A DNA stretch of 64,000 nt from Phyllobates terribilis. Its lineage: Eukaryota. A program made the translations under genes and the position numbers. Within the stretch, counting starts at the first letter, position 1. Every line of letters begins with the position of its first letter. The DNA lies in contig NW_027362769.1 in the NCBI RefSeq assembly GCF_046119375.1, positions 278,442,001 through 278,506,000 of the forward strand, in the 5' to 3' direction. The notes beneath the pieces are model-generated. The model did no database searches and had not been told where the DNA came from. It saw nothing but the letters and a program-made list of their open reading frames with translations. This document shows positions 14,497-64,000 of this stretch, one piece after another.

Positions 14497-14533
14497 TACG
14501 TAACGTTTCGACCTTTATATTGGTCTTCCTCAA
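14497..14533 (-). ncRNA. Minimal hammerhead-ribozyme-like motif (mirror of 24730-24766)
   Basis: Minus strand TTGAGGA-A-GACC-aatataaa-GGTC-GAAA-CGTTACGTA. Position 3 is U rather than C. Confidence 0.45.
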
Positions 14534-15370: not shown

Positions 15371-15476
15371 TCTCTCGGAGATGATTCCCTCCCGCCTCAT
15401 GATTTTATGCTACAGGAAAGCGCTCACATATAACGCCCCTTATGTATCTGGCTGAAATTCTATATTGAAAGATATC

Positions 15477-17073
15477 CAGTACAGACCAAAGTTTGGACAC
15501 ACCTTCTCATTTAAAGATTTTTCTGTATTTTCATGACTATGAAAATTGTACATTCACACTGAAGGCATCAAAACTATGAATTAACACATGTGGAATTATA
15601 TACTTAACAAAAAAGTGTGAAACAACTGAAAATATGTCTTATATTCTAGGTTCTTCAAAGTAGCCACCTTTTGCTTTGATGACTGCTTTGCGCACACTCT
15701 TAGCATTCTCTTGATGAGCTTCAAGAGGTAGTCACCGGAAATGGTCTTCCAACAATCTCGAAGGCATTCCCAGAGATGCTTAGCACTTGTGGGCCCCTTT
15801 GCCTTCACTCTGCGGTCCAGCTCACCCCAAACCATCTCGATTGGGTTCAGGTCTGGTGACTGTGGAGGCCAGGTCATCTGGCGTAGCACCCCATCACTCT
15901 CCTTGTTGGTCAAATAGCCCTTACACAGCCTGGAGGTGTGTTTGGGGTCATTGTCCTGTTGAAAAATAAATGATGGTCCAACTAAACGCAACCCGGATGG
16001 AATAGCATGCCGCCGCAAGATGCTGTGGTAGCCATGCTGGTTCAATTTTGAATAAATCCCCAACAGTGTCACCAGCAAAGCACCCCCACACCATCACACC
16101 TCCTCCTCCATGCTTCATGGTGGGAACCAGGCATGTAGAGTCCATCCGTTCACCTTTTCTGCGTCGCACAAAGACACGGTGGTTGGAACCAAAGATCTCA
16201 AATTTGGACTCATCAGACCAAAGCACAGATTTCCACTGGTCTAATGTTCATTCCTTGTGTTCTTTAGCCCAAACAAGTCTCTTCTGCTTGTTGCCTGTCC
16301 TTAGCAGTGGTTTCCTAGCAGCTATTTTACCATGAAAGCCTGCTGCACAAAGTCTCCTCTTAACAGTTGTTGAAGAGATGTGTCTGCTGCTAGAACGCTG
16401 TGTGGCATTGACCTGGTCTCTAATCTGAGCTGCTGTTAACCTGCGATTTCTGAGGCTGGTGACTCAGATAAACTTATCCTCAGAAGCAGAGGTGACTCTT
16501 GGTCTTCCTTTCCTGGGGCGGTCCTGATGTGAGGCAGTTTCTTTGTAGCGCTTGATGTTTTTTGCAACTGCACTTGGGGACACTTTTATAGTTTTCCCAA
16601 CTTTTTCGCACTGACTGACCTTCATTTCTTAAAGTAATGAGCTGCTTTTTTCTTGCCATAATACAAATTCTAACCGTCTATTTAGTAGGACTATCAGCTG
16701 TGTATCCACCAGACTTCTGCACAACACAACTGATGGTCCCAACCCCATTTATAAGGCAAGAAATCCCACTTATTAAACCTGACAGGGCACACCTGTGAAG
16801 TGAAAACCATTTCCGGTGACTACCTCTTGAAGCTCATCAAGAGAATGCCAAGAGTGTGCAAAGCAGTCATCAAAGCAAAAGGTGGCTACTTTGAAGAACC
16901 TAGAATATTAGACATATTTTCAGTTGTTTCACACTTCTTTGTTAAGTATATAATTCCACATGTGTTAATTCATAGTTTTGATGCCTTCAGTGTGAATGTA
17001 CAATTTTCATAGTCATGAAAATACAGAAAAATCTTTAATTGAGAAGGTGTGTCCAAACTTTTGGTCTGTACGG
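15477..17073 (-). mobile_element. Tc1-family DD38E (Intruder-type) transposon, frameshifted
   Basis: TIR cagtacagaccaaagtttggacac / gtgtccaaacttttggtctgtacgg. [12 protein letters not shown] and SPDLNPIE motifs lie in split ORFs 15596-16226. Absent from the mirror arm (empty site ~23785). Confidence 0.93.
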
Positions 17074-17513
17074 TATACATATGTACTACCCCTAACAGTG
17101 TGACATTATCTTAATTGGGATCATTGTGGTACCTCTCTAGATAAAATATCCTCACATCAATTGATTGTCAGCAAGCTATATAGAAGGGGAGGACAAAAGG
17201 AAAAATAAAGTGGAAGAAACGCAGGAGAAAAAACGTAAAAGAAAATAAAGGAAACTAGAGAGAGAGGAGGGGGAGAAAATGGAAGAAAGGCGGGAAAGAA
17301 AGGGAGGAGGAGGGGGAAAGGAGGAAGACACGGGGGGGAGTGGAGGGGGAGAACGAGGGAGGGGCCGGTGATGGGGGGGGGATTCTTTAAAGATATATAA
17401 ACAGAGGAAACCAAAGGAGAGGAAAAAATAGTTACATACCCATATGTGAAGATCACCACCACCACAACCTTTTAACAATTCTGAAAAAGAAAAGAATCAA
17501 ATTAGAACGTGAA

Positions 17514-20060
17514 TCACAGATAACTGGAAACATCATATTCCTTATTAAGCCCTTTCTGGCGTAATGTTTAAAGGCGAAAAATCCAAAAGGCTTTGTTTTA
17601 ATGTTTTTATTCGGTTACCCCCTCGTCTGGGAACTCCAATTTGTTCCAGTACCTGAAATGTGAGTTGAGTTATTGTATGTTTTGGCTCAATAAAGTGGCA
17701 AGATAGTAGCAGACCGATTTTTTTTACACCGTGTACTCGACTTATGTTGAGATATTCTATCACGTATATGTTGTGTGGTCTCCCACACATACATCAAACC
17801 ACAAGGACATTTTATGCCATAGACCACATAGGATATCTCACATGTAAACAATCCCTTAATGGGTATCCCTTCACCTGTGTGCGGATGATATACTTTATCA
17901 CCTTTCAATATGTGGTTACATTGAAAGCACTGAAGACGTGGAAAAGTTCCGTTTCTCCTAGATGACAAAAACCGTTGTGTAGGTAATTTAATTCCCGAAC
18001 CTACATCGGCTTTGACTAACCTGTCTTTTAAATTTGTTGGTCTCCTGAAACAGGGTAAAACAGGACTCTGGAATTCCTCTACTCCTGGACAGCCTTGTGC
18101 CAAAATGTGCTAATATCTACGGATTTGGCGATGTATTTTATATGCAAAAGGGTGGAAATCGTGGACAAATGCCAGTCGTTTACCCAGTATCCTCATTGGT
18201 ACCTGGTCAGTTTCTCCTGCTATAGAGAGTGTTTGTTCCGGATATCCCCTACTGCGAAATTTACTCTGCATTTCTTATCTCATTTCTTGCTGAACGGGGT
18301 CGGAAACTATTCTTTCTACTCTTTTAAATTGGGACTTTGGAATGGCTTTTTTAGTGGCTGTGGGATGGCAACTTTCATAATATAGAAGACTATTGCGATC
18401 TGTTTCTTTAGTGTATAAATCAAAAGTCAAAGAGCTTTCCCTCTTAATGACTGTAGTATCTAAGAAATTCACTTGATTCTCACTATATTGAATAGTGAAC
18501 TTGATTTCTGGCCACACATCATTCAAAAACTCATGAAAGATCAAAAGGGAGTTTAATGGGCCCCCCATATGCAAAAAATATCGTCTATAAATCTTTTCCA
18601 CATCACCGCATGTTGTTTAAATAATGGATGTACATACATGAAAGACTCCTCGAAACTCGCTATATAACAATTTGCATATGGGGGGTCCACATTGGACCCC
18701 ATTGCTGTTCCCCGTTTCTGTTGATAAAACGTATCCTGAAACAGAATTTTTTTTCATACAATACAATTTTGAGTATGTCCATATAAAAAGATCTGACCAA
18801 ACCAGCATGTCCTGTTCGTTTAAGTAGATCATCTACCGCTGAGAGTCCCTTATCATGCACTATAGAGGTATACAAACTTTTACCGTTACGGGTCCGGATG
18901 GTGGAACCATCTGGAGGGACCAGAGGGGCGTAACGAAGTGCCTACCCGGACCGACCCTGGCTATACGACGGCTTAGTCGACTCCTTGAACCAAGGAGGGA
19001 CCGGGAAGGTTAACCAGGTGCCACTCTGGGACCGACCTCATGTAAGAGCAGGCGACTCCCACAGGGCTGACAGCCGAAGCAGACTGGCACGACAGATGGG
19101 CTGACAGATGTGCAAAATCTCATTAACATAATACTTAGTGTCCATAATCTCGATTGCTCCCCCCTTATCCGCAGGTTTTATGGTCAAATCCTTATCCTCC
19201 ATCAATGAATCAAGGGCTTGTTTATCCAAACTACTCAAATTTGATGTACAATGTAAATGGCCCTTATCAATTTCCCGTTTAAAACTGGCAACCTCACTTT
19301 CTAGCAAAGAAATAAACATTTGCACAGGGTGATTATTTTTTGGTGGCATAAAGCTACTTTTCACTCTAAGACCAAATGATTATATAGAAACTAATGCCTT
19401 ACTAGGTTCGCTGGTGTTCAAATGTCCATTCTCTTTATTGAAAAATGCCCTCAATCTTATATTCCTATAAAATCTTTATAAATCCATGTCCAACTTAAAG
19501 AAATTAAACCTATATGATGGACAAAAAGATAATCCTTTTTGTAATACTGCTAATTGTGCAGGGCCTAAAGTTTTAGGCGAAATATTAACCGGAAGTAGAG
19601 TTCTTATACCTGTGATCTGGTTACTCTTTGAAAAGTCATGTCTTCTCCTCCCTTGTCCTCCCCGTCGCAATTTCTTCTTCGATTGTACCTGTGTTTTGAT
19701 CCTAAAAAAGTCGGTTGTTGATGATTTTCTCTTGTATACCTTTCGCTGTCCGTACTGGAGTATGAAGTGTCTGGTGAAACTCATCGACCTCGGGAGAAGA
19801 AGCGTCTGGTTTCCTGCCTTCTGTAAACTCAGTTCTGTATATAGTCCTTGGCGTCTCTAATAAACTTGGACTGTTTCCTCTTTTCCGATTCTTGATGATG
19901 GTTTACAAGATTATTCTCTATCTTTTCCTTCAAAGAGGTAAAATCCTCTGCTTTCAACGTTGTTTTTAGTTGGGATTCAATTTCATCTATTTTGGACTTA
20001 GTTGATATTGATTTCTGGAGATGATCAACCGTTAAGACCATTAAATCATGAGCATTTTTA
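17514..20060 (-). pseudogene. Penelope-like ORF remnant (N-terminal region, RT, GIY-YIG endonuclease)
   Basis: Peptides VNISPKTLGPAQLAVLQKGLSFCP, IKPADKGGAI, VNFLDTTV, SLLYYESCHP, VVYGIKCPCGLMYV-ETT, GLNKEY. Multiple frameshifts and stops. Confidence 0.92.
18880..19108. mobile_element. ~230-bp LTR-derived filler replacing ~390 bp of Penelope RT
   Basis: gaggggcgtaac...cgacggc...ggaggga aligns loosely with the LTRs at 41110-41270 and (reverse) 61060-61275. The corresponding RT segment is present in the + arm (20268-20655). Confidence 0.6.
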
Positions 20061-21464
20061 TTTCTTTAAGTTGATAGAAAGTGAAGTTGCCAGTTTTAAA
20101 CGGGAAATTGATAAGGGCCATTTACATTGTACATCAAATTTGAGTAGTTTGGATAAACAAGCCCTTGATTCATTGATGGAGGATAAGGATTTGACCATAA
20201 AACCTGTGGATAAGGGGGGAGCAATCGTGATTATGGACACTAAGTGTTATGTTATTGAGATTTTATCACAATTACAGGATGATAATGTGTACTTACCTTT
20301 GAAATGTGATCCATCTTCGAATATTTCAAGAAAAATAGAGTGTACTTTACAACAATATCTGGGTTTAGGAGTGATAGATATGAAAACATATGAATTTTTG
20401 ACTAAAAGTAATCCTATTACTCCCGTTTTTTACACTCTTCCAAAAATACATAAACGATTAAATAATCCCCCTGGACGACCAATTATTGCATAAACTGAAT
20501 CCATATTATCCCCATTATCTATACTACTAGAGAAAGCACTTACACCTCTAATTTGGGGTACTAAATCATTTATTTGAAACACAGGTGATTTTATAGGATC
20601 GATCAAGAATTTGGATATTCCCGCTGAGAGTATCCTGGTGACGTGGGATATAAATAGTTTGTATACCTCTATAGTGCTTGATAACGGACTCTCAGAAGTA
20701 AATGATCTACTTAAATGAACAGGACATGCTGGTTTGGTCAGATCTTTTTATATGGACATGCTCAAAATTGTATTGTATGAATAATTTTTTTTTTGACTTT
20801 TGATTCATACACTAAGGAAACAGATCGCAATAGTCTGCTATATTATGAAAGTTGCCATCCCACAGCCATTAAAAAGGCATTCCAAAGTCCCAATTTAAAA
20901 GAGTGGAAAGAATAGTTTCAGACAGAACCTGTTCAGCGAGAAATAAGGTTGAAGGAAATGCAGAGTAAATTTCGCAGTAGGGGATATCCGGAACAAACAC
21001 TCTCTATAGCAGGAGAAGCTGACCAGGCACCAATGAGGATACTAGGTAAACGACTGGCATTTATCCACGATTTCCACCCTTTTGCATATAAAATACATCA
21101 CCAAATCCGTAGATATTAGCACATTTTGGCACGAGGCTGTCCAGGAGTAGAGGAGTTCCAGAGTCCTGTTTTACCCTGTTTCAGGAGACCAACAAATTTA
21201 AAAGACAGGTTAGTCAAAGCAGATGTAGGTTCGGGAATTAAATTACCCACACAACGGTTTTTGTCATCTAGGAGAAATGGAACTTTTCCATGTCTTCAGT
21301 GCCTTCAATGTTACCACATATAGAAACATGATAAAGTATATCATCCGCACACAGGTGAAGGGATACCCATTAAGGGATTTTTTACATGTGAGATATCCTA
21401 TGTGGTCTATAGCATAAAATGTCCTTGTGGCTTGATGTATGTGGGGGAGACCACACAACATATA

Positions 21465-23099
21465 CAGTGGGTACGGAAAGTATTCAGACCCCTTTAAATT
21501 GTTCACTCTTTGTTTCATTGCAAACATTTGGTAAATTCTAAAAAGTTAATTTTTTTTTCTCATTAAAGTACAATCTGCACCCCATCTTGACTGAAAAAAA
21601 AACAGAAATGTAGAAATTTTTGCAAAATTTATTAAAAAACTAAAGCTGAAATATCACATGGTCATAAGTATTCAGACCCTTTGCTCAGACACTCATATTT
21701 AAGTCACATGCTGTCCATTTCCTTGCAATCCTCCTTGAGATTGTTCTACTCCTTCATTGGAGTCCAGCTGTGTTTAATTAAACTGATAGGACTTGATTTG
21801 GAAAGGCACACACCTGTCTATATAAGACCTCACAGTTCACAGTGCATGTCAGACCAAATGAGAATCATGAACTCAAAGGAACTGCCCAAGGAGCTCAGAG
21901 GCAGAATTGTGGCAAGGCACATATCTGGCCAAGGTTATAAAAGAATTTCTGCATTACTCAAGGTTCCTAAGAGCACAGTGGCCTCCATAATCCTTAAATG
22001 GAAGAAGTTTGGGACCACCAGAAGTCTTCCTAGACCTGGCCGTCCAGCCAAACTGAGCAATCGTGGGAGAAGATCCTTGGTGAGAGAGGTAAAGAAGAAC
22101 CCCAAGATGACTGTGGCTGAGCTCCAGAGATGCAGTAGGGAGATGGAAGAAAGTTCCACAAAGTCAACTATCACTGCAGCCCTCCACCAGTCAGGCTTTT
22201 ATGGCCGAGTGGCCCAACGGAAGCCTCTCCTCAGTGCAAGACATATGAAAGCCTGCATAGAGTTTGCTCAGAAACACAAGAAGGACTCCAAGAGTATGAG
22301 AAATAAGATTCTCTGGTCTGATGAGACAAAGAAAGAACTTTTTGGTGATAATTCTAAGCAGTATGTGTGGAGAAAACCAGGCACCGCTCATGACCTGCCC
22401 AATACAATCCCAACAGTGAAACGTGGTGGCAGCATCATGCTATGGGGGTGTTTTTCAGCTTCAGGGACAGGACGACTGGTTGCAATTGAAGGAAACATGA
22501 ATGCGGCCAATAACAGAGATATCCTGGATGAAAACCTCTTCAAAAGTGCTCTGGACCTCAGACTTGGCCGAAGGTTCACCTTCCAACAAGACAATGACCC
22601 TAAGCACACAGCTAAAATAACAAAGGAGTGGCTTCAGAACAACTATGTGACCATTCTTGTCTGGCCCAGCCAGAGCCCTGACCTAAACCCAATTGAGCAT
22701 CTCTGGAGAGACCTGAAAATGGCTGTCCACCAACGTTCACCTTCCAACCTAACGGAACTGGAGAGGATCTGCAAGGAAGAGTGGCAGAGGATCCCCAAAT
22801 CTAGGTGTGAAAAACGTGTTGCATCATTCCCAAGAAGACTCATGGCTGTACTAGCTCAAAAGGGTGCTTCTACTCAATACTGAGCAAAGGGTCTGAATAC
22901 TTATGACCATGTGATATTTCAGTTTTTCTTTTTTAATAAATTTGTGAAAATTTCTACATTTCTGTTTTTTTTCAATCAAGATGGGGTGCAGAGTGTACTT
23001 TAATGAGAAAAAAATGAACTTTTTAGAATTTACCAAATGGCTGCAATGAAACAAAGAGTAAAAAATTTAAAGGAGTCTGAATACTTTCCGTACCCACTG
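21465..23099 (+). mobile_element. Tc1 DD34E transposon, 1635 bp, TA TSD
   Basis: TA|cagtgggtacggaaagtattcagac ... gtctgaatactttccgtacccactg|TA. Long TIRs; absent from the mirror arm (~17765). Confidence 0.97.
21867..22883 (+). CDS. Tc1 transposase, 338 aa, open frame
   Basis: MNSKELPKELR..., [23 protein letters not shown] with D-34-E spacing. No stop from ATG 21867. Lacks one residue in the usual HGGG-S motif (KRGGS). Confidence 0.9.
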   Translation: MNSKELPKELRGRIVARHISGQGYKRISALLKVPKSTVASIILKWKKFGTTRSLPRPGRPAKLSNRGRRSLVREVKKNPKMTVAELQRCSREMEESSTKSTITAALHQSGFYGRVAQRKPLLSARHMKACIEFAQKHKKDSKSMRNKILWSDETKKELFGDNSKQYVWRKPGTAHDLPNTIPTVKRGGSIMLWGCFSASGTGRLVAIEGNMNAANNRDILDENLFKSALDLRLGRRFTFQQDNDPKHTAKITKEWLQNNYVTILVWPSQSPDLNPIEHLWRDLKMAVHQRSPSNLTELERICKEEWQRIPKSRCEKRVASFPRRLMAVLAQKGASTQY

Positions 23100-24729
23100 T
23101 ACGTGATAGAATATTTCAACATAAGTCGAGTATACGGTGTAAAACAATCGGTCTGCCACTACCTTGCCACTTTATTGAGGCAAAACATACAATATCTCAA
23201 CTCACATTTCAGGTACTGGAACAAATTGGAGTTCCCAGACGAGGGAGTAGCCGAATAAAAACATTAAAACAACGGGAAGCCTTTTGGATTTTTTCGCCTC
23301 CAAACGTTACACCTGAAAGGGCTTAATAAGGAATATGATGTTTCAAGTTATCTGTGATTCACGTTCTAATTTGGTTCTTTTCTTTTTCAGAATCGTTAAA
23401 AGGTGGTGGTGATCTTCACATATGGGTATGCAACTATTTTTTCCCCTCCTTTGGTTTCCTCTGTTTATACATCTTTAAAGTCTCCCCCTCTCTCCAGCCC
23501 CTCCCTCGTTCTTCCCCTCCACTACCCACCTGTGAATTCCTCCTTTCCCCCTCCTCCTCCCTTTCTTTCCCGCCTTTCTTCCATTTTCTCCCCCTCCTCT
23601 CTCTCTAGTTTCCCTTTTTTCTTTTGCGTTTTTTCTCCTGCGTTTCTTCCCCTTTATTTTTCCTTTTGTCCTCCACTTCTATATAGCTTGCTGACAATCA
23701 ATTGATGTGAGGATATTTTATCCAGAGAGGTACCACAATGATCCCAATTAAGATAATGTCACACTGTTAGGGGTAGTACATACATATATATCTGTCAATA
23801 TAGAATTTCGGCCAGATACATAAGGGGCGTTATATGTGAGCGCTTTCCTGTAGCATAAGATCATGAGGCGGGAGGGAATCATCTCCGAGAGAGTCGTATA
23901 ACGTGAGTGGGAGGAGGCGCTATTATGAGCGTCAGATGACGCGACCGGGGAGGTATTATCTTGGAACGTCATGTGACGCGAATGGGGTAAGGTACTATTA
24001 GGAGCGTCATATGACACTATAAGTGGGAGATATACATGTTGGGGGGTGGAGCTCTCTGCTGAATGAGATAACGCCAGAGGTACTGGTCATGTGACACACA
24101 ATGGGGTGGGGCTTTGATCAGGTAATGTCGTCATACACATCTATTTCCGGGGCTAGAGCATAAAACACGAGCTGGGCAAGGTAACAGGTAGCACTGATCC
24201 ACACGTGGTACACGTTTTTCACATGAGTGCAGAATCCAGGAGGTATTTCCCTACCAATCTGGTAAGCTCATATCTTTTATAACCTGTTCTATCTGCCTCT
24301 CTTGATTTCTTTTCCTAGCAAATCTCTGGTGAAGGTTTCCTGAAGTTTGAAGGGTCCACTACCATATTAAATTTGGATGGAGATTAATTCCTTTTTTGCC
24401 ATTTTTCATTTATTTATAAAAAATACTAATGATACCGCTTGAGAAGTTATACTCTTGATATTGGTACAATAAGTGATGTTAGATAATATGTGATACAATT
24501 GACTATGACACTGAACTTCCTGCTTGTGTATATTTATAGATACATATATGTGTATTTGTGCTTGATGTATATCCATTTGGATACTATGATTTCTACCACA
24601 TATCAATTCTTTGAGAATATAGAAATTGTATTTTTTTGAACAGACATTTTTTTTTGTGTGACTAAACTGATGTATTTTTGACATGGATGGTAATGTGATT
24701 TTCTTTTGTTCATTATGTATACACAGTGT

Positions 24730-24766
24730 TTGAGGAAGACCAATATAAAGGTCGAAACGTTACGTA
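24730..24766 (+). ncRNA. Minimal hammerhead-ribozyme-like motif near Penelope 3' end
   Basis: TTGAGGA-A-GACC-aatataaa-GGTC-GAAA-CGT-T-ACGT-A. Stem II 4 bp, palindromic stem III, GUA triplet; stem I weak. Confidence 0.45.
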
Positions 24767-25764
24767 ATTTTGGATCGCATATGAAAAAATAAATAATATT
24801 CTTGAAAATTAAATAATTTAAAAATTTTATTGAGTTGAATTAGTCTGGGGACAGTAACGCCACATCCACTAGTCTAAGGCCTCATTTACATATCATAAAC
24901 AGACTTTAAAAATAGTGTTTCGAAAGATCTGTTTTTGTGTGTAATGTAATATAGCGACTGTTAGGAAGGGTGTTTATATATGCAGACCCAACTGCCGGTG
25001 GTTCTGGGGGTACATGGAACCTGACAGGCTGCCTTTAAGCAGTTAACACAGTATGGAAAGTGTGACTTCAAATAAAAGACTTTTCAGCTCATCCCGAGCC
25101 TTGTTCTGATAGCCACTAGAAAAATTGTAAAAGTTGTGAGGCAGTGAGAGGGATCATATGCGAGGGACGGTACGTATTCCCCAGGATGTGCATATAAGCA
25201 TATTGAACCCGCTGGAGTGCATTACAATCACAGAAACCGCTTTGGTTGCAGTGCAGAATAAAAGTAAAGTTTGGACTTGGTCAAACTATTTGGCTAATTT
25301 GGATTTAAGAAAGTCGGCATGGGTTTTTATTTTGGGAGTGAACTATAGGTGGCAGTGGGGCAGTCCACTCCCTCCAGCCCGGGTCTTGCATGTGGCTCAT
25401 GGCAACAGATTCCATTTAAAAACCTGCAGCAAAGGTTTGGGTGTGTCAGTGTTGGGATTGCTAGCAGCAGAGCAGGAAGCTCTGCACTGCAAGCCTGTGT
25501 AAAGCTGAGCACAGGCCTGTGAAGGCGACGTATCTGATGCACCCTAAGTGACACGGCACGGCCGTCTCCAACGGCAGCAGGTTTATACTGTATGGATATC
25601 CCGGCTGCGATCCGGAGGACAGCTTTTGCATTTGAGTTGTGAGTTTTTGGCAATTAAAGATGTTTAAGTTGGACTTTCTTTGGGTCACTGCTCATTACTG
25701 CACAGTGAGAACATCGCCACACTACAAAGTATAGATCAGAGACATAGCATAATAAATTAAAGAT

Positions 25765-28794: not shown

Positions 28795-29057
28795 TTACAT
28801 GACTCTGTAATATGGAAAAATTATAGCTCTCAAAATATGGCGATGCAAAAACTAGCCTTTGCAAAAAAAAAGTTTTTTTTAGTGTGTGACAGCTGTCAAT
28901 TATAAAAACCCGATATACATCTGGCATCGCTGTAATTGCACCGACCCGAAGAATAAAGTTGTCTAATCACTTATGCCGCACGAGGAACGGCATAAAAAAT
29001 AAACTGTAGGGTTAGGTTTGTGCTAGGGTTAGGATTACATAGTAACATAGTAATGTA

Positions 29058-30685
29058 CAGTACAGACCAAAAGTTTGGACACACCTTCTCATTTAAAGAT
29101 TTTTCTGTATTTTCATGACTTTGAAAATTGTACATTCACACTGAAGGCATCAAAACTATGAATTAACACATGTGGAATTATATACTTAACAAAAAAGTGT
29201 GAAACAACTGAAAATATGTCTTATATTCTAGGTTCTTCAAAGCAGCCACCTTTTGCTTTGATGACTGCTTTGCACACTCTTGGCATTCTCTTGATGAGCT
29301 TCAAGAGGTAGTCACCGGAAATGGTCTTCCAACAATCTTGAAGGAGTTGCCAGAGATGCTTAGCACTTGTTGGCCCTTTTGCCTTCACTCTGCGGTCCAG
29401 CTCACCCCAAACCATCTCGATTGGGTTCAGGTCTGGTGACTGTGGAGACCAGGTCATCTGGTGTAGCACTCCATCACTCTCCGTCTTGATCAAATAGCCC
29501 TTACACGGCCTGGAGGTGTGTTTGGGGTCATTGTCCTGTTGAAAAATAAATGATGGTCCAACTAAACGCAAACCGGATGGAATAGCATGCCGCTGCAAGA
29601 TGCTTTGGTAGCCATGCTGGTTCAGTATGCCTTCAATTTTGAATAAATCCCCAACAGTGTCACCAGCAAAGCACCCCCACACCATCACACCTCCTCCTCC
29701 ATGCTTCATGGTGGGAACCAGGCATGTAGAATCCATCCGTTCACCTTTTCTGCGTCGCACAAAGACACGGTGATTGGAACCAAAGATCTCAAATTTGGAC
29801 TCATCAGACCAAAGCACAGATTTCCACTGGTCTAATGTCCATTCCTTGTGTTCTTTAGCCCAAACTTGTCTCTTCTGCTTGTTGCCTGTCCTTAGCAGTG
29901 GTTTCCTAGCAGCTATTTTACCATGAAGGCCTGCTGCACAAAGTCTCCTCTTAACAGTTGTTGTAGAGATGTGTCTGATGCTAGAACGCTGTGTGGCATT
30001 GTCCTGGTCACAAATCCGAGCTGCTGTTAACCTGCGATTTCTGAGGCTGGTGACTCGGATAAACTTATCCTCAGAAGCAGAGGTGACTCTTGGTCTTCCT
30101 TTCCTGGGGCGGTCCTCATATGAGCCAGTTTCTTTGTAGCGCTTGATGGTTTTTGCAACTGCACTTGGGGACACTTTCAAAGTTTGCCCAATTTTTCAGA
30201 CTGACTGACCTTCATTTCTTAAAGTAATGATGGCCACTCGTTTTTTCTTTACTTAGCTTTTTTCTTGCCATAATACAAATTCTAACAGTCTATTCAGTAG
30301 GACTATCAGCTTTGTATCCACCTGACTTCTGCACAACACAACTGATGGTCCCAACCCCATTTATAAGGCAAGAAATCCCACTTATTAAACCTGACAGGGC
30401 ACACCTGTGAAGAGAAAACCATTTCTGGTGACTACCTCTTGAAGCTCATCAAGAGAATGCCAAGAGTGTGCAAAGCAGTCATCAAAGCAAAAGGTGGTTA
30501 CTTTGAAGAACCTAGAATATAAGACATATTTTCAGTTGTTTCACACTTTTTTGTTAAGTATATAATTCCACATGTGTTAGTTCATAGTTTTGATGCCTTC
30601 AGTGTGAATGTACAATTTTCAAAGTCATGAAAATACAGAAAAATCTTTAAATGAGAAGGTGTGTCCAAACTTTTGGTCTGTACTG
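29058..30685 (-). mobile_element. Tc1-family DD38E (Intruder-type) transposon, 1628 bp, TA TSD, ~270-bp TIRs
   Basis: TA|cagtacagaccaaaagtttgg ... ccaaacttttggtctgtactg|TA. Same family as 15477-17073. Confidence 0.96.
29221..30271 (-). pseudogene. DD38E transposase; 319 codons open, N-terminus broken by frameshift and stop
   Basis: WSDE; QQD-(38 residues)-E counted in QQDNDPKH...SPDLNPIE. Probable original ATG at 30271 is followed by an indel and TGA. Confidence 0.88.
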
Positions 30686-31376
30686 TAGGTTGAATAAAGA
30701 CCTAGGTCCATCCAGTTCAACCTTTCTCCCCGAATTGTACTCCCTGCATAACATACTAACTTACTGGGACTAGGAATCACAAACTTATTATTACCGTTTT
30801 TATTATTGCTGCACTATTACAATTAAAGATGTGCCCGCTTATAATTTTTTAATTAGTTTTATATTTTGTATTACTCTTATGTTTCTAATAGTGGTATTAC
30901 TTAAATCCCTATTCTTAAATCTGTTGATCCAGAAGAAGGCAAAAACCCCAGGACACATTCAGCCAATTTGCATTACGGGGAAAAATTCCTTCTTGACCCC
31001 GAGAAAAGGCGATCAGTCTTAGAACCCTGGATCAAACCTAATTATGATACTAGTTATGTAATTACTATTATCGTATTATTGTACTACTATAGGTGTAATA
31101 TTTTGTCTAATTTAACTGTAACTCACAATGTTATGTGTATCGAGGAAATCATCCAGACCTTTTTTGAAAGCTGTTATAGTGTCGGCCATCACTACCTCTT
31201 GTGGTAGGGCATTGCACAGTCCAACTGCTCTGACTGTAAAGAACCTTTTCCTGTTTCAGTGCCGGAATCGCCTTTCTTCCACTCGTAATGAGTGCCCCCT
31301 TGTCCTTAGTATGATCTTTGGAAGGAATAAGTCATGTGCTAGTTCTTTGTACTGACCACAAATATATTTATACATG

Positions 31377-41037: not shown

Positions 41038-43747
41038 TGTAATGCACACGCCCGGACTGACTGGCATGTGCATGTTTAGTGGTTCCACTGTGCCATGAAC
41101 CGGAGAGTGTCTGGAGGGGCGTAACTAAGTATCTGCCCGATCCAACCAAGGTCGCACGACGGCATACGACGCCAGTGCACCACGGAGGAACCGAGCAGAG
41201 GGACCAGGGTCTACTCCAGGTCAGACTCCGGACATGGCTGTTGACCCACACCGGGGAATACAGGAACAGGCAGACTAAAGCGCAGGCTGGGTAGGGTCCA
41301 GTACAGACTGGGAGACAAATTCGGAGCCGCAGATGCGGTAAACAAACAGAGTAAAGCGAAACCGCAGGTGCAGTAGTCAAGGCCGAGCAGAGCAGAACCG
41401 CAGACGCGGTAGACAAGGCTGAGCAGAGCAAAACCGCAGACGCGGTAGACAAGGCTGAGCAGAGCAAAACCGCATATGCGGTAGACAAAGCTGAGCAAAG
41501 TGAAACCGCAAACGCGGTGGACAGGACTGAGCAAAGCGAAACCGCAGACGTGGTGGACAGGGCTGAGTAAAGCGAAACTGCAGACGCGGTGGACAGAGCT
41601 GAGCGAAGCGAAACCGCAGACACGGTGAACAGGGCAGAGCAAAGCGAAACCGCAGACGCAGTGGACAGGGCTGAGCAAAGCGAAGCCGCAGACGCGGTGG
41701 ACAGGGCTGAGCAAAGCGAAACCGCAGACGCGGTGGACAGGGCTGAGCAAAGCGAAACCGCAGACGCGGTGGACAGGGCTGAGCAAAGCGAAACCGCAGA
41801 CGCGGTGGACAGGGCTGAGCAAAGCGAAACCGCAGACGCGGTGGACAGGGCTGAGCAAAGCGAAACCGCAGACGCGGTGGACAGGGCTGAGCAAAGCAAG
41901 AACCGCCGAAGCGGCAAGCAAGGCAGAGCGGAGGGAACAGGGCTCAGTTCACACGGAACAGACAGGAAGGGAAAGGCAGAACCAGATACCCACAGGGTAC
42001 TTGCAGAGAAGTTCCACTGTGCCATGAACCGGAGAGTGTCTGGAGGGGCGTAACTAAGTATCTGCCCGATCCAACCAAGGTCGCACGACGGCATACGACG
42101 CCAGTGCACCACGGAGGAACCGAGCAGAGGGACCAGGGTCTACTCCAGGTCAGACTCCGGACATGGCTGTTGACCCACACCGGGGAATACAGGAACAGGC
42201 AGACTAAAGCGCAGGCTGGGTAGGGTCCAGTACAGACTGGGAGACAAATTCGGAGCCGCAGATGCGGTAAACAAACAGAGTAAAGCGAAACCGCAGGTGC
42301 AGTAGTCAAGGCCGAGCAGAGCAGAACCGCAGACGCGGTAGACAAGGCTGAGCAGAGCAAAACCGCAGACGCGGTAGACAAGGCTGAGCAGAGCAAAACC
42401 ACATATGCGGTAGACAAAGCTGAGCAAAGTGAAACCGCAGACGCGGTGGACAGGACTGAGCAAAGCGAAACCGCAGACGCGGTGGAGAGGGCTGAGCAAA
42501 GTGAAACTGCAGACGCGGTGGACAGAGCTGAGCGAAGCGAAACCGCAGACGCGGTGAACAGGGCTGAGCAAAGCGAAACCGCAGACGCGGTGGACAGAGC
42601 TGAGCGAAGCGAAACCGCAGACGCGGTGAACAGGGCTGAGCAAAGCGAAACCGCAGACGCGGTGGACAGGGCTGAGCAAAGCGAAGCCGCAGATGCGGTG
42701 GACAGGGCTGAGCAAAGCGAAACCGCAGACGCGGTGGACAGGGCTGAGCAAAGCGAAACCGCAGACGCGGTGGACAGAGCTGAGCAAAGCTAAACTGCAG
42801 ACGCGGTGGACAAGGCTGAGCAAAGCGAAACCGCAGACGCGGTGGACAGGGCTGAGCAAAGCGAAACCGCAGACGCGGTGGACAGGGCTGAGCAAAGCGA
42901 AACCGCAGACGCGGTGGACAGGGCTGAGCAAAGTGAAACCGCAGACGCGGTGGACAGGGCTGAGCAAAGCGAAACCGCAGACGCGGTGGACAGGGCTGAG
43001 CAAAGCAAGAACCGCCGAAGCGGCAAGCAAGGCAGAGTGGAGGGAACAGGGCTCAGTTCACACGGAACAGACAGGAAGGGAAAGGCAGAACCAGATACCC
43101 ACAGGGTACTTGCAGAGAAGTAGCGAGTGGACCACAAACTCACAAACGGAAGTACAGTGACAACGAGCAGGAGTTAGGTACGAGTTCAGACTCTGCAGAA
43201 AAAGGGAAGGTACGGACATAGAGAAAAACAAAACAGGCTAGGAGAGTATTCAGACAAGAACAGACACAGCAGCAAGATACAGGAGCGGGTCTAGGTAAGC
43301 GGCCCCTAGAAGGCGGAACGAACAGGCAGGAGCGTGTTCACACAGGCCTGCAAATATAGCCTCCAGGATAGGCAGAAGACAACAGGCTAGAAGATAATAC
43401 AGACAGGACACAGTTCTGATACCGAAGGCAGGAAACATAAACGGGACCTGGCATATCAGTGACCAGAAGCCAACTGACAGAACACAATGCTCAAGCATGG
43501 GTTAATTGGAGCAGCTGGTTTAAATACCAGGTGACAGACAGCAATAGGCTGAGGACGCACAAGGGGTGTGCCTGCAGCAGGTACAAAAAGCAGGAAGTGA
43601 TCGGGCGTCGCCCTTAAGCAGCAGAAACAGAAGCAAACAGACAGCATGGAGGGAAGCCAGAGAGACATTCTGGATTGGAGATCAAGTGCGCGCTCTTGCA
43701 CAGTGGGAGATGGACCACTATGCAAGGACGCCGCCAGGTATGTTACA
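41038..43747 (-). mobile_element. Solo LTR (2710 bp) with internal tandem duplication, 5-bp TSD AAAGG; related to the LTRs at 59527 and 63531
   Basis: AAAGG|tgtaatgcacacgcc ... ggtatgttaca|AAAGG. Both ends are the reverse complement of the 59527-61347 LTR ends. Confidence 0.93.
41380..43010. repeat. Two 36-bp minisatellite blocks (41380-41900, 42310-43010) inside the duplicated LTR segment
   Basis: Unit gggctgagcaaagcgaaaccgcagacgcggtggaca. Confidence 0.95.
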
Positions 43748-45071: not shown

Positions 45072-45659
45072 ATGGAGGACTTGCTGAAACACCTGGTCCA
45101 GTCGCAGCAGCAGGAGGCCAACAGGCTGTTGTTACAGCAGATCCAGCAGCACCAGCAGGAACAATGGCAGCAGATGCAGCTTCTGGCAACCGCCATCCAG
45201 GGCAGGACGAGCGCCCCAACCCCAAGTCCGGCTGATGACACCCACGTCCGGAAGGCGGTAAAACGGGCTTTGCAGAAAATGACCCCGGGGTATGACGTTG
45301 AGGCCTTCCTGATGGTGTTTGAAAGGGTCGCCGAGAGTGAGAAACTTCTGCAAGGGCAGTGGGCAGAGGTACTGGCGCCATACTTGCTGGGAGAGCCCCA
45401 GAAGGCGTACTGTGATTTAGCTTTGCAGGACGCCAAAAAGTATGGCAAGCTAAAAACTGAGATTCTCGCACGCTTGGGGGTGACCATGACTGTCAGGGCG
45501 CAGCGGGTTCACCGCTGGGCGTATCACCAGGACAAACCACCTCACTCCCAAATGTTTGAACTGTTGCACCTGGTCCAGAAGTGGCTGCAGCCGGAGTCCT
45601 CTACACCTGCTTGCGCAGATGGTAGAGCGGGTGGTGATGGACCGGTTTTTGCAGCATAG
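45072..45659 (+). pseudogene. Gag with SCAN-like domain, truncated
   Basis: LQKMTPGYDVEAFLMVFERVA..QWAEVLAPYLLGE..LKTEILARLG..SQMFELLHLVQKWLQPE; frameshift before ERVVMDRFL. Confidence 0.85.
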
Positions 45660-45697
45660 GACGCCGTTGTTCATATTATGCATATCCGGCCTGCAGT

Positions 45698-47136
45698 GTG
45701 AACTGTCCACCCAGCGAGGGGCCTCAAGCATGTCCTGTGAAGGTGAACTGGCAGGAGGTAACGACACTGCTAGACTCCGGGAGTCTGGTGACCCTTGTGA
45801 GGGACACCCTTCCTCTCCAAATGATCGCGAGAAAAAAATTTGGCGTTCGGTGCATTCATGGTGATGCTAAGGACTACCCTATGGCCAGAGTGGACATTGA
45901 AATGGCCCACGATACTGACTCCCACGAGGTCGGCGTCGTTCAGGACTTATTGCACCCTATTATTATAGGCCGGAACTTTTGTTTATTTTGGGATCTGTGG
46001 GGGAAGGGTTCCGGGTTCGCTGGCTCAGATAAGAGACCAGTTAACCCTGATGAGGTATCACCACACCCAGAGTCAGACAGGTTTCCCTTCTTTTGTGTCC
46101 TTGTGGGGGATGAGGAGGTAGTGCTCCCTGAGTCTGACATTCCGGAGTTAGGGGTGACTAGCGAGAATTTTGGGTTTGCTCAACATAAGGACCTAACCCT
46201 GAAGGAAGCCTTTAATAATGTCACTGTCATAAATGGGGTTGCACAGGAGCGGGAGGCTGACACAAGGTTTCTCCATTTTATGATGAGTGGGGAGTTGTTG
46301 TACCGGGTCACAAAAGTGAGGGAGGAGTGTGTGGAGCAGTTAATAGTGCCGGGCCCCTATAGACGGAAGGTGTTGGACATGGCCCATTCACATGCCTTGG
46401 GGGGATATCTGGGAGTGGAAAAAAAGCAGGAACAGATCGTGCAGAGGTTCTATTGGCCCGGATGTCACCAGGAAATATTGAAGTATTGCAGGTCTTGCCC
46501 TATGTGCCAGTTAACCGCTCCCACCTCTCACTTTCGAAGTCCCCTCGTGCCATTGCCCATTATTGAAGTGCCGTTCAAGAGAATTGCTATGGACTTGGTT
46601 GGTCCCCTGGTTAAATCTGCTCGTGGTCATCAATATATATTGGTTACCCTGGACTGTGCCACCTGCTACCCTGAAGCGATTCCACTGAGAAACTCTTCTG
46701 CAAAGAGAATAGCCCGCAAGTTGGTCCACGTTTTTTCCCGAATAGGCTTACCAAAGGAGATCCTGACTGACCAGGGAACTCCCTTTATGAGTAAGGTGAT
46801 GAGGAAGTTATGCAAAGTCCTGCAAATCTCCCAACTGATAACTTCAGTGTACAATCCTCAGACAGATGGCTTTGTGGAAAGGTTTAACAAGAATCTGAAG
46901 AGTATGCTGAGGAAGGCCATAGAAAAGGACAGTAGAGACTGGGACTGTCTCCTACCTTATTTGTTGTTCTCCATCCGAGAGGTTCCACAGGCCTCTACGG
47001 GGTTCTCGCCATTCGAACTCCTGTATGGACGTCATCCGCGGGGTCTTCTGGATGTCGCAAAGGAAACCTGGGAAGCCGATGTCACGTCCCACAGGAGCAT
47101 TTTCGAGAATGTCGCTCTGATGCAGAAGAGGATTGC
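45698..47136 (+). pseudogene. Protease + integrase
   Basis: LLDSGS; H..H/C..C zinc-binding remnant; IAMDLVGP, LTDQG, QTDGFVERFN. Confidence 0.92.
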
Positions 47137-47257
47137 AAAGGTGATGATAAATAGCATAGGGATAAAATATAACCTTTATTAGAAAATTAATTAAAAAGGC
47201 CCAAAGTGAAAATGTGCATCCATAAATACAAGACGTACCATATAGTACTAAACCGTG

Positions 47258-58744: not shown

Positions 58745-59526
<782 letters not shown>

Positions 59527-59748
59527 TGTAACATACCTGGCGGCGCCCTTGCATGGTGGTCCATCTCCCACTGTGCAAGAGCGAGCACTTGATCTCCAGT
59601 CCAGAATGTCTCTCTGGCTTCCCTCCATGCTGTCTGTTTGTGTCTGTTTCTGCTGCTTAAGGGCGGCGCCCGATCACTTCCTGCTTTTTGTACCTGCTGT
59701 GGGTCACACCCCTTGTGCGTCCTCAGCCTATTGCTGTCTGTCACCTGG

Positions 59749-59788
59749 TATATAACCCAGCTGCTCCAATCAATCCCTGCCTGAGCAT
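59749..59788 (+). promoter_or_regulatory. LTR TATA box and predicted transcript 5' end
   Basis: TATATAA at 59749-59755; gcctgagcat begins 30 nt downstream (59779). Confidence 0.65.
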
Positions 59789-59882
59789 TGTGCTTCATTC
59801 AGTGTGTGCTTGCACTCTGAAGGTGCCAGGTCCCGTTCTGTGTTTCTCTTGTCTGCCTATCCTGGAGGCTGTATTTCCAGGC

Positions 59883-60890
59883 CTGTCTGAACACGCTCCT
59901 AGCCTGTTCCTCCCGCCTTCTAGGGGCCGATTACCTAGACTCGCTCCTGTATCTTGTCTGTCCTGTCTGAACACGCTCCTAGCCTGTTCCCCCCGCCTTC
60001 TAGGGGCCGATTACCTAGACCCGCTCCTGTATCTTGTCTGTCCTGTCTGAACACGCTCCTAGCCTGTTCCTCCCGCCTTCTAGGGGCAGATTACCTAGAC
60101 CCGCTCCTGTATCTTGTCTGTCCTGTCTGAACACGCTCCTTGCCTGTTCGTCCCGCCTCTCTGGGGGCCGTATTCCCAGACCCGCTCCTGTATCCCGCTG
60201 CAGTGTCGGTCTCTTCCGTACACTCAGTTCCAGTCTGAACTCTCTCCTATCCTTTACCTGTTTTGCCTCTATGTCCATTCCTTTCCTTTTTCTGCAGAGT
60301 CTGAACTCGTACCTAACTCCTGCTTGTTGTCTCTGTACTCCCGTTTGTGAGTTTGTGGTCCACTCGCTGCTTCACTGCGGGTGCCCTGTTGGTGTCTGGC
60401 TCTGCCTTTCCCTTCCTGTCTGTTCCGTGTGAACTGAGCCCTGTCCGTCCTGCTCTGACTCCTTGCTCACTGCTCTGGCAGCCTTGCTCCGCTCTGACCC
60501 TTTTGCTCACTGCTCCGGCAGCCTTGCTCCGCTCTGACCCTTTTGCTCACTGCTCCGGCAGCCTTGCTCCGCTCTGACCCTTTTGCTCACTGCTCCGGCA
60601 GTCTCGTCCTGCTCTGCTCTTGCTCACCGCTCCAGGCGGTCTCGTCCTGCCCTGCTCTTGCTCACCGCTCCAGGCGGTCTCGTCCTGCCCTGCTCTTGCT
60701 CACCGCTCCGGGCGGTCTCGTCCTGCCCTGCTCTTGCTCACCGCTCCGGGCGGTCTCGTCCTGCCCTGCTCTTGCTCACCGCTCCGGGCGGTCTCGTCCT
60801 GCCCTGCTCTTGCTCACCGCTCCGGGCGGTCTCGTCCTGCCCTGCTCTTGCTCACCGCTCCGGGCGGTCTCGTCCTGCCCTGCTCTCGCT
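59883..60890. repeat. Tandem repeats within the LTR: 80-bp x4 (59883-60190), 40-bp x3 and 38-bp x~7 (60480-60890)
   Basis: Anchors at 59883/59963/60043/60123; 60481/60521/60561; 60601/60639/60677... Confidence 0.9.
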
Positions 60891-61349
60891 CACCTCTCTG
60901 GGCGGCCTCACTCTGCTGTGTTTGTCCGCCACATCTGTGGTTCTGTTCCAGAGTCCCAGTGTGTACTGGGTCCTATCCCGCCTGTGTTCCTACCTGCTAG
61001 TGCCTTCCTGTCTGCACTCTAGCCGTGCTTGCCTGTACCCCCCTGCCTGCATACCCGCCTGCCTGCATACCAGTCGTGCCTGCCTATTCCCACCAGTCTG
61101 TGTGTCAGCCTAACCAGTCTGTTCCTGTATTCCCCTGTGTGGGTCAACAGCCGTGTCCGGGGTCTGTCCTGGAGTAGCACCTGGTCCCTCTGCTCGGTTC
61201 CTCCTTGGTGCACTGGCGTCGTATGCCGTCGTGCGACCCTGGTCGGATCGGGTGAATACCTAGTTACGCCCCTCCAGGCATTCACTCTCCGGCACGGACC
61301 AGTGGAATCACACGCACACGCCGCTCAGCCCGGGCGTGTGCATTACAGC

Positions 61350-61359
61350 ATGCTCAGGC
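61350..61359 (+). promoter_or_regulatory. Self-priming-type PBS
   Basis: atgctcaggc, 2 nt after the LTR end, is the exact reverse complement of 59779-59788; no TGG tRNA-type PBS present. Confidence 0.7.
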
Positions 61360-61488
61360 CATGGTTCCCGTTGAGCCCCACGGCCTTCGCTCTCTGAGAC
61401 GTTTTCCAGCGAATACATGCATTAAAAATAAATAAATACAATTTTTTTTTCTCTAGCTGAGTTCCTGGCTAATTACGCACCCGTCCAG

Positions 61489-63408
61489 ATGGATCTATCT
61501 GCTCTCGTTCCTGCGGATCCGCCACGTTACTATGGGGATCCAAGACAAAGTCGTGCATCTGTGGAGCAATGCATGCTACACTTCAAGTTCTACCCTCTAT
61601 GTTTTCCCACCGATCGGGTTAAGGTGGCATTCATTATGTCTAACCTAGCGGGTGATGCCTTGGAATGGATCAACCCCCTATGGGAAACACAGGATCCTAT
61701 CGTCCTGGACATAATGGCCTTCCTGGTGGCCTTTCTAATGGTCTTCGATGATCCTAACCCGGAGGCTCCTGCTGAAGCTTCACTTCCCAATATCCCGGAG
61801 CAGCCCCGATGGGTAATGTGTGTGGGTAGCGCAATAGTCCTCCAGCCCAATGAGACTACTGCCCACCCAGAATCCTCACAGGGTGACTACGCTCTCCGGA
61901 ATACTTCTCCCAACCTCAAGAGGCAGTCCAGACGTGCTAGACGTAGAGGCAAGCCGTCACGCCAGGGTCTGTCCTCCCTGAGACCTCCTGACCCCAACCT
62001 TGAAGTCCCTACTGAAGCTTCATCTCCCTGTATCCCGGAGAAGCCCCAACGGGTAATGTGCGTGGGTAGTGCACCAGTTCTCCTGCCCGAAGAGACTACT
62101 GCCCATCCAGACTCCACACAGGAGAACTTCCTGCACCCGGCATCAGATGCTTCACCCACTTTAATCGGTGTGCATGTCCAAGGATGCTCCGAAGCTGTGA
62201 TTACCTCAGAGTCTGTGCACCTCTACTACCTGGCGGAGGACCCCCAGTTGCCTCCTGAATCCTCCGGGATACCACTCGATGACAAATGGAGAGAGACTTC
62301 TCTACACCTGGTACTCGATACTTTGTCCGCTCCGTCCTGTGAGCCTGACAATGGGTACCCCAAAGTGGTAGATACCCCCGAGTCTCTACACCCCTCCGAC
62401 CAGGCGGAGGACCTCCAGTTGTCTCCAGAACCCTTCGGGGTACTACCTGGTAGCGAAAGGACAGAGACTCTCCTATACTCTGTACCTGATACCTCGCTCG
62501 CTTCGTCCAGTGAGTCCAACCTAGTGTACTCTGAAGCAGAGGTTACCCATGAGTCTCTACACCCCTCCGACCAGGCGGAGGACCTCCAGTTGTCTCCAGA
62601 ACCCTTCGGGGTGCTACCTGGTAGCGAAAGGACAGAGACTCTCCTATACTCTGTATCTGATACCTCGCTCGCTTCGTCCAGTGAGTCCAACCTAGTGTAC
62701 TCTGAAGCAGGGGTTACCCATGAGTCTCTACACCCCTCTGACCAGGCGGAGGACCTCCAGTTGTCTCCAGAACCCTTCGGGGTGCTACCTGGTAGCGAAA
62801 GGACAGAGACTCTCCTATACTCTGCACCTGATACCTCGCTCGCTTCGTCCAGTAAGTCCAACCTAGTGTACTCCGAAGCAGAGGATACTCCCGAGTCTCT
62901 ACACCCCTCCGACCGGGCGGAGGACATCCAGTTGTCTCCAGAACCCTTCGGGGTGCCACCTGGTGGTGAATGGACAGAGACTTTCCTATACTCGGTACCC
63001 GATACCTCGCCTGCTTCGTCCAGTGAGTCCGACCTAGTGTACTCTGAAGCAGATGTTTTCTCCGAGCCTCTGCACTCTTCTGACCCGGCGGAGGACCTCC
63101 AGTTGTTTCCTGAATCCTCCGGGGTACCACCAGATAACAAAGAGACAGTGATTTTTCCTCATCCTGTACCTGATAACCCGTCTAATTCTTCCTGTGAGCT
63201 TGACAAGATGTACCTCGAAGCAGAGTTTACCCCCAAGTCTCTGCTCCCCTCCAACCCGGTGGAGGACTTCCAGTTGTCTCCTGTACCCTCTGGGGTGCCA
63301 CCTGAAAATATGTGGAGAGAGACTTCCTTGTGTGCTGTTCTTGGTACTCCACCCGTTTCGTCTGTTGCTGAGGATGGCTGGATAGGAGGTAGCAACCTAG
63401 CTAACTAG
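61489..63408 (+). CDS. 639-aa ORF: sushi/RTL(PEG10/LDOC1)-like Gag N-terminal capsid segment + acidic P/S/E-rich tandem repeats
   Basis: PPRYYGDPRQSRASVEQCMLHF..FPTDRVKVAFIMSNLAGDALEWINPLWE..FLMVFDDP resembles the DUF4939/retrotransposon-gag motif; then an 80-aa-spaced duplication and seven 57-aa units; no stop. Confidence 0.8.
   Translation: MDLSALVPADPPRYYGDPRQSRASVEQCMLHFKFYPLCFPTDRVKVAFIMSNLAGDALEWINPLWETQDPIVLDIMAFLVAFLMVFDDPNPEAPAEASLPNIPEQPRWVMCVGSAIVLQPNETTAHPESSQGDYALRNTSPNLKRQSRRARRRGKPSRQGLSSLRPPDPNLEVPTEASSPCIPEKPQRVMCVGSAPVLLPEETTAHPDSTQENFLHPASDASPTLIGVHVQGCSEAVITSESVHLYYLAEDPQLPPESSGIPLDDKWRETSLHLVLDTLSAPSCEPDNGYPKVVDTPESLHPSDQAEDLQLSPEPFGVLPGSERTETLLYSVPDTSLASSSESNLVYSEAEVTHESLHPSDQAEDLQLSPEPFGVLPGSERTETLLYSVSDTSLASSSESNLVYSEAGVTHESLHPSDQAEDLQLSPEPFGVLPGSERTETLLYSAPDTSLASSSKSNLVYSEAEDTPESLHPSDRAEDIQLSPEPFGVPPGGEWTETFLYSVPDTSPASSSESDLVYSEADVFSEPLHSSDPAEDLQLFPESSGVPPDNKETVIFPHPVPDNPSNSSCELDKMYLEAEFTPKSLLPSNPVEDFQLSPVPSGVPPENMWRETSLCAVLGTPPVSSVAEDGWIGGSNLAN
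62209..63350 (+). repeat. 171-bp (57-codon) in-frame tandem repeat, about 7 units
   Basis: Anchors at 62209, 62380, 62551, 62722, 62893, 63064 and 63235 (all +171). Confidence 0.95.
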
Positions 63409-63500
63409 ATGAGACCAGTTTTTCCTGTGGACAGTGGGAGTGATCTCCTTAAAGTGAAGGATTGGCCCTCGAATTCCCTGCGGAAGATTCTGGCAGGCCT

Positions 63501-63527
63501 GAAGAAGAGGGGGCGTAAGGGGGGGGG
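63501..63527 (+). other. Polypurine tract
   Basis: gaagaagagggggcgtaaggggggggg ending 3 nt before the 3' LTR TG. Confidence 0.85.
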
Positions 63528-64000
63528 TACTGTAACATACCTGGCGGCGCCCTTGCATGGTGGTCCATCTCCCACTGTGCAAGAGCGCGCACTTGATCTC
63601 CAGTCCAGAATGTCTCTCTGGCTTCCCTCCATGCTGTCTGTTTGTGTCTGTTTCTGCTGCTTAAGGGCGGCGCCCGATCACTTCCTGCTTTTTGTACCTG
63701 CTGTGGGTCACACCCCTTGTGCGTCCTCAGCCTATTGCTGTCTGTCACCTGGTATATAACCCAGCTGCTCCAATCAATCCCTGCCTGAGCATTGTGCTTC
63801 ATTCAGTGTGTGCTTGCACTCTGAAGGTGCCAGGTCCCGTTCTGTGTTTCTCTTGTCTGCCTATCCTGGAGGCTGTATTTCCAGGCCTGTCTGAACACGC
63901 TCCTAGCCTGTTCCTCCCGCCTTCTAGGGGCCGATTACCTAGACTCGCTCCTGTATCTTGTCTGTCCTGTCTGAACACGCTCCTAGCCTGTTCCCCCCGC

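Follow-up and report, generated by a model that had tools for sequence, protein, structure and literature searches.

We analysed a 64,000-nucleotide stretch of the Phyllobates terribilis genome (assembly GCF_046119375.1, contig NW_027362769.1, positions 278,442,001 to 278,506,000 of the forward strand; hereafter the window, to which all coordinates refer), which ends inside a 5.7-kb long terminal repeat (LTR) retrotransposon that starts at 59527 and lies on the plus strand. The element is an enzyme-less member of the sushi group whose reading frame is a collapsed gag-pol, and selection probably favours, in cis, the translation of its genomic RNA. This reading was drawn from the make-up of its open reading frame (ORF; 639 amino acids, 61489-63408), from the distribution of stops among its copies, and from the abundance of its family.

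A reading frame derived from gag-pol

The first 102 codons of the ORF (61489-61794) encode the N-terminal lobe (N-lobe) of a capsid of the DUF4939 family, as judged from Pfam, HMMER and a fold model, and the ratio of nonsynonymous to synonymous substitution rates (dN/dS) points to purifying selection on it. A 133-residue N-terminal piece matched DUF4939 with E = 3.7e-7 (30.4 bits; cut-off 29), which bore out the sushi-type Gag N-terminus proposed in an initial annotation of the window, made from the sequence without database searches; the whole ORF scored 26.3 bits. Residues 9-102 were aligned by HMMER to the Gag of sushi-type Gag and Gag-Pol proteins (best 47-52% identical), and the top homologues were Gag or Gag-Pol proteins with Retrotrans_gag, protease, reverse transcriptase (RT) and integrase. 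A word-index search with residues 1-125 returned nothing, although the full HMMER search did find homologues. The alignment-based model of the N-lobe piece (73 sequences) was a helical bundle with a predicted local distance difference test score (pLDDT) of 85, compared to 48 for a poor single-sequence prediction. Foldseek with this model gave weak matches, nearly all of them capsid lobes, with the Arc N-lobe as the best (E 0.71); the matches of a PDB sequence search (E2 only) were dismissed as chance. In the last N-lobe helix (61699-61755), the median peak 19-residue hydropathy was 1.87 in subfamily A, 1.54 in subfamily B and 1.09 in 42 homologues (maximum 1.69). The raised value in A could reflect decay or a membrane or signal recognition particle-type signal.

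Beyond the N-lobe lies a decayed C-terminal lobe (C-lobe), recognised by comparison with a pol-bearing sibling element, followed by a partial duplicate, read from the sequence, and a linker (61795-62372). Relative to the sibling, the C-lobe has lost about 24 residues across what we take to be the major homology region, and an Arg-rich patch is found in this part at 61915-61953. The capsid-like domain that the initial annotation considered to be kept is therefore the N-lobe, but not the whole capsid. Next comes an acidic, Ser/Pro-rich tandem repeat of 171 bp (57 codons) in 5.5 units (62373-63304), whose unit number differs between copies in 171-bp steps. An origin of the 57-residue repeat from the integrase C-terminus was suggested by its position but rejected, the alignment scoring 21 and shuffles 28, and a 310-residue antisense frame (151-411 residues among copies) was set aside as a by-product of the repeat. 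Database searches with the tail beyond the N-lobe yielded composition-type matches only, the best atlas score of 0.82 being not significant. The last ~70 codons are a decayed integrase chromodomain, the end of which can be followed in the ORF frame at 63340-63530 (z = 17 against shuffles; 0 of 2000 shuffles); by its sequence, this remnant speaks for descent and not for function. A Pfam search of the ORF matched neither protease nor RT, RNase H or integrase families; the absence of pol motifs noted earlier holds at the level of Pfam families but not for the chromodomain.

A private stop at 63406-63408 ends the frame of the window copy prematurely, 41 codons short of the LTR, whereas sister copies read up to or into the LTR; the ORF is thus not intact, as it had been called. 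The pol of a sibling likewise reads through the polypurine tract (PPT) into the LTR. Of the 27 open copies, 18 have a frame that extends about 75 codons into U3 and ends on the TATA box in the 3′ LTR, the phase of this read-through being set by the length of a G run.

The two subfamilies differ in how much of gag-pol is left. In B, which is older (2,989 candidates), the frame further takes in a decayed zinc knuckle, a protease lacking the catalytic DSG and the first RT residues (z = 11.6 for the RT piece), and it is colinear with the gag-protease-RT start of the siblings (29% identity over 460 amino acids). In A these zinc knuckle-protease-RT remnants are deleted and more repeat units are carried. 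Both subfamilies terminate in the decayed chromodomain, and both have a new Met directly before the N-lobe. Because the B frame follows gag-protease-RT and both subfamilies end in a chromodomain, the ORF reads as a collapsed gag-pol (N-lobe, decayed C-lobe, acidic repeat, decayed chromodomain) and not as Gag with foreign cargo. These features place its descent in the sushi chromoviruses (Tf1/sushi group, Ty3/gypsy), from which a complete element would have become non-autonomous by stepwise in-frame deletion of gag-pol. The acidic, low-complexity tail described in the initial annotation is real, but the remainder of gag-pol was lost by stepwise deletion and in-frame decay and not simply replaced.

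Selection on the reading frame

We compared copies of both subfamilies. The A sample was taken from the first 40 PPT sites by position on one contig (one chromosome arm), giving 41 interiors, which were reduced to 39 by removing one subfamily B copy and one tandem duplicate; the allele test used 38 of them (a large-deletion copy was dropped) and codons 1-295 and 501-675. The B sample was a best-hit set of 12 copies, of which one was dropped for an insertion. The frame from ATG to PPT was open in 27 of the 39 A copies, with 16/20 in the youngest class and 3/9 in the oldest. The fall of the open fraction with age class indicates that single copies decay after insertion. Stops behaved differently in private and shared alleles. 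There were 8 private stops in A and none among 270 shared alleles (p = 0.007), and 8 private and no shared stops in the 11 B copies; combined, stops made up 16 of 508 private and 0 of 344 shared alleles (p = 0.00036), where about 11 shared stops were expected. Indels in B included 9 private frameshifts, while the sole shared indel was of 3 bp; shared frame-changing indels in A were confined to the 5′ leader and the terminal G run. The alternative frames +1 and +2 hold on average 17 and 45 stops, respectively. These counts support, statistically, that stops and frameshifts were purged from the lineages that kept transposing.

The frame could also have been kept open by chance in a few source copies, the progeny being simply young. 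Most A copies are indeed very young, and few master lineages would cut the number of independent events; we nevertheless disfavour this reading as highly unlikely, since 344 shared variant alleles hold no stop, the frame crosses all deletion joints despite an A-B divergence of about 0.3, and the frame is still open in a clade that has lost the catalytic site and retains only 29% identity with its gag-pol ancestor.

Amino-acid constraint was found in one part of the ORF. The ratio of nonsynonymous to synonymous changes in the N-lobe was 3.17 for private and 1.53 for shared alleles (p = 0.026), compared to 2.63 and 2.49 outside it (p = 0.79). Between A and B, dN/dS was 0.29 (0.17-0.47) in the N-lobe, 0.57 (0.26-1.46) in the decayed C-lobe and 0.71 (0.45-1.21) at the C-terminal end; the N-lobe dS of 0.39 was near the U3 divergence of 0.35. 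Statistically, constraint thus appears limited to the N-lobe while the remainder drifts.

Copy number, mobility and putative helpers

In this 10.6-Gb genome, the exact junction of LTR and primer site occurred 2,893 times and that of PPT and LTR 4,934 times (controls 0), and the LTR start 34,824 times (control 1), so that with some 35,000 LTR starts the clade contributes visibly to a giant genome. The interior was pol-less in 30/30 and 30/30 loci (the first 30 per junction search, the sets overlapping in part). Close same-strand LTR pairs among the first 100 LTR starts were spaced 3.0-4.3 kb in 22 of 25 cases, and 8.6 kb in one. The sampling came to about 90 full elements overall. The 5-bp duplications differ from copy to copy, and tandem LTR-interior-LTR arrays also occur. 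On unplaced contigs, six copies have identical flanks, and the element therefore lies inside a larger repeated unit there. LTR pairs of A diverged by a median of 0.3% over ~330 bp, with 11 of 39 identical; in B, 9 of 11 pairs had 6-13 differences in 330 bases, the other two having aligned badly. The junction counts, the near-identical LTR pairs and the pol-less interiors confirm the earlier proposal of a recently mobile, multi-copy, non-autonomous family. The outcomes that had been named beforehand as contrary to that proposal were absent: the element is multi-copy, its relatives are not full-length, stops are not shared at the neutral rate, and the Gag hidden Markov model matches.

Thousands of sites occupied by an element without enzymes of its own point to RT, RNase H and integrase being supplied in trans by pol-bearing siblings that share its ends. 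All cis signals are kept, namely the LTR ends, the predicted self-priming site and the PPT. A search for an autonomous partner, which the initial annotation had proposed, found siblings with the primer site of B and about 70-74% of the U5 end, but none with the same U3; over the final 39-43 nt of the interior, their identity to the element is 81-92%. In at least 49 cases a chromodomain-type end adjoins an LTR that starts TGTAACAT, like the LTR of this element. By sequence, then, the predicted helpers are a clade of pol-bearing siblings.

Possible routes of cis selection

We propose that the genomic RNA would need translation to near its 3′ end to serve as a good template, through stability, through routing to particle-assembly sites, or both, and that the nascent N-lobe probably helps to bring its own RNA to helper capsids. 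These two levels, RNA stability and docking of the translating RNA on helper capsids by the N-lobe, would not exclude each other: the first would explain the freely drifting tail and the second the constraint on the N-lobe. Selection would act in cis because a trans-acting protein would let stop-bearing copies free-ride. The same consideration bears on a restriction factor, acting in trans or selected by the host, in which the half capsid poisons helper particles to the benefit of host or family. An N-lobe-only architecture, as in LDOC1 and RTL8 (PMC10516033, PMC11684626), would suit such a factor, but a product of that kind could not clear stops from every lineage that transposes; single copies lose their ORF as they grow older, the family continues to multiply, and no fixed, LTR-less orthologous locus was seen among the copies examined. 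We regard such a factor as very unlikely.

It is possible, if rather doubtful, that selection operates on the RNA only, the open frame merely avoiding nonsense-mediated decay or a long 3′ untranslated region, with a protein that is inert, N-lobe included, and an N-lobe constraint inherited or recombined in from older coding lineages. The amino-acid neutrality of linker and tail would follow from this, as would the equal dN of N-lobe and decayed C-lobe; charged residues have gone from the last N-lobe helix, which is more hydrophobic than in the 42 homologues (1.87 versus 1.09), as might result from decay. Harder to reconcile with an inert protein are the enrichment of shared N-lobe variants in synonymous changes within the non-autonomous lineages, the new Met just before the N-lobe in both subfamilies, an N-lobe that still folds confidently (pLDDT 85), and its having been spared by every deletion series. 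At the other end stands a capsid parasite, which we put forward tentatively: a ribosome-tethered half-capsid, with its long disposable tail, would co-assemble with the helper capsid and load its own RNA in cis. If true, the N-lobe-only design of RTL8 and LDOC1 would be a strategy that mobile sushi elements evolve themselves, which would open a path to half-capsid genes ahead of host domestication.

Several points weigh against cis selection for translation as we propose it. The dN of the N-lobe (0.112) equals that of the decayed C-lobe (0.118), its low ratio being due to a higher dS that might equally have come from recombination with older haplotypes; within B alone, the interval around the N-lobe dN/dS of 0.83 was wide (0.38-2.14). 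Shared alleles do not count as independent events, the copies are visibly recombinant, the A sample came from one chromosome arm and the B sample was a best-hit set, and the repeat block (codons 296-500) lay outside the A allele test. The start of the A ORF stands behind a 1.7-kb leader with 5 upstream AUGs, the ancestral start being out of frame. A helper with the same U3 was not found, U3 being different in the two of the 49 loci with chromodomain-type ends that were examined. Ty1 is reported to lack a cis preference (PMC3945221), and the same source states that some translation may be required for the stability of Ty1 RNA.

Element anatomy and predicted self-priming

The organisation given in the initial annotation (LTR-ORF-PPT-LTR, 1 mismatch in the 470 LTR bp comparable within the window, a 2.18-kb interior and 639 codons) was reproduced throughout. 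The 5′ LTR (59527-61347; 1821 bp, TG..CA) has a short U3 of about 250 bp and a long R-U5 that holds tandem arrays with units of 80, 40 and 38 bp; the interior of 2183 bp (61348-63530), with the PPT at 63502-63527, separates it from the 3′ LTR, the first 470 of whose 1705 bp (116 bp fewer than in the 5′ LTR) are inside the window (63531-64000). In the neighbouring genome stretch, the 3′ LTR ends at the equivalent of position ~65235 and is directly followed by CCTTC, the predicted copy of the target-site duplication on the left (59522-59526), which verified the 5-bp duplication on both sides. The element inserted into a decayed transposase frame that continues on both flanks and is, by its motifs, presumably Tc1-type.

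The primer binding site (61348-61359) lacks a tRNA-type TGG start and is predicted to be self-priming. Its complement, 59779-59788, would be the first 10 nt of the RNA and a putative self-primer, the start being placed 30 nt past the TATA box (59749-59755). Among the loci compared, 38 of 39 in A and 7 of 11 in B have this 10-nt complement 30 nt past the TATA box. A compensatory change distinguishes A from B, and a pol-bearing sibling shows a further one. The predicted mechanism is as described for the Tf1/sushi group (PMC6317226), and the element has the primer site that characterises this lineage. Just downstream, the ancestral gag start persists as a 24-codon upstream ORF (61361-61435) that is out of frame or stopped in 39/39 A copies, and a pyrimidine run ending in TAG (61440-61456), immediately 5′ of the ORF, resembles a splice acceptor. 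No splice joint showed in the contigs of four runs, which are of uncertain kind and carry no weight on transcription, splicing or the RNA start.

Other features of the window

The related solo LTR reported at 41038-43747 proved real; it belongs to a related subfamily, lies on the minus strand, has an internal 833-bp duplication and its own AAAGG target duplication, and is 82-88% alike to the LTR of the element in unique parts. A 55-bp satellite of 193 copies (~91% alike) occupies 1-10622. At 14474-24789 there is a long inverted duplication, with arms at ~14474-19307 and 20071-24789 that are 91-99% complementary in pieces and, in one arm, a 415-codon Tc1-like frame (21636-22880). A 324-codon Tc1-type transposase frame on the minus strand (29224-30195) lies between 274-bp inverted repeats (29056-29329 and 30414-30687). 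On the plus strand, a 514-codon open frame (45638-47179) that starts with the retroviral-type protease motif LLDSGS is probably another Ty3/gypsy pol piece.

Comparison with known systems

Our literature search returned no report of such a family type in amphibians or fish, or elsewhere outside plants and mammals; Repbase, Dfam and subscription journals, in which it may be catalogued, lay outside the search. The closest functional parallel is mouse IAP 1-delta-1, whose gag-pol fusion product is reported to act in cis (Saito et al. 2008, cited in PMC6466679). Neither this parallel nor the predicted self-priming had been noted in the initial annotation. In both, an in-frame internal deletion fuses gag to the end of pol, gag and pol are required in trans, and complete elements are outnumbered (PMC6466679). 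IAP 1-delta-1 is a betaretrovirus-like endogenous retrovirus that is primed by a tRNA and goes back to one recent deletion; the element described here, in contrast, is by its sequence a self-priming chromovirus with a long deletion series, deeply decayed parts and an amplified acidic repeat. It would work like IAP 1-delta-1 without being a member, the need for translation in cis being drawn, indirectly, from the lack of shared stops. So far, cis selection for translation is reported for this one mouse IAP subtype and reported absent in Ty1, and the present family, with its many copies, lends itself to testing in nature whether LTR retrotransposons come under selection of this kind.

Plant TR-GAG elements (PMC4350172) share with it LTRs, primer binding site, PPT, 5-bp duplication, a Gag-similar ORF, no RT, at least two copies and mobility. 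They stay below 4 kb and code for the precursor of Gag, which in TR-GAG1 includes a zinc finger, whereas this element measures 5.7 kb (within the 1-6 kb filter of the automatic search in that source), keeps only the N-lobe, with the major homology region deleted and the zinc knuckle lost or decayed, contains pol-derived remnants and resides in an animal genome. By the size and Gag-precursor definitions of that source it is not a TR-GAG. ERVL-MaLR elements (PMC11359688, PMC6466679) are likewise vertebrate LTR elements that lack pol, are highly abundant and carry a gag-related ORF; they are of retroviral class III origin, and cis selection on the ORF is not described in the parts of those sources consulted. 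With the Tf1/sushi chromoviruses (PMC6317226) the element has in common the Gag family, the predicted self-priming site and the 5-bp duplication, to which a decayed remnant of the chromodomain end adds a sign of descent, and with the pol-bearing siblings of the same genome the primer site and 3′ end; unlike an autonomous sushi element, it has no functional protease, RT, RNase H, integrase, chromodomain, C-lobe or zinc knuckle. The long ORFs of such elements may be decayed gag-pol and not captured genes.

The likeness to domesticated RTL proteins raised in the initial annotation holds for architecture, as RTL8 and LDOC1 also combine a sushi-type N-lobe only (DUF4939) with a disordered extension (PMC10516033, PMC11684626), but nothing indicates host domestication: those are fixed single-locus host genes, while the element forms thousands of dispersed young insertions that are mobile and lose the ORF with age. 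RTL8, which itself has no more than an N-lobe, binds to the N-lobe of PEG10 and is taken into PEG10 particles (PMC11684626). The family can be viewed as an extant form that lies between complete sushi elements and the half-capsid design of RTL8 and LDOC1 in mammals.

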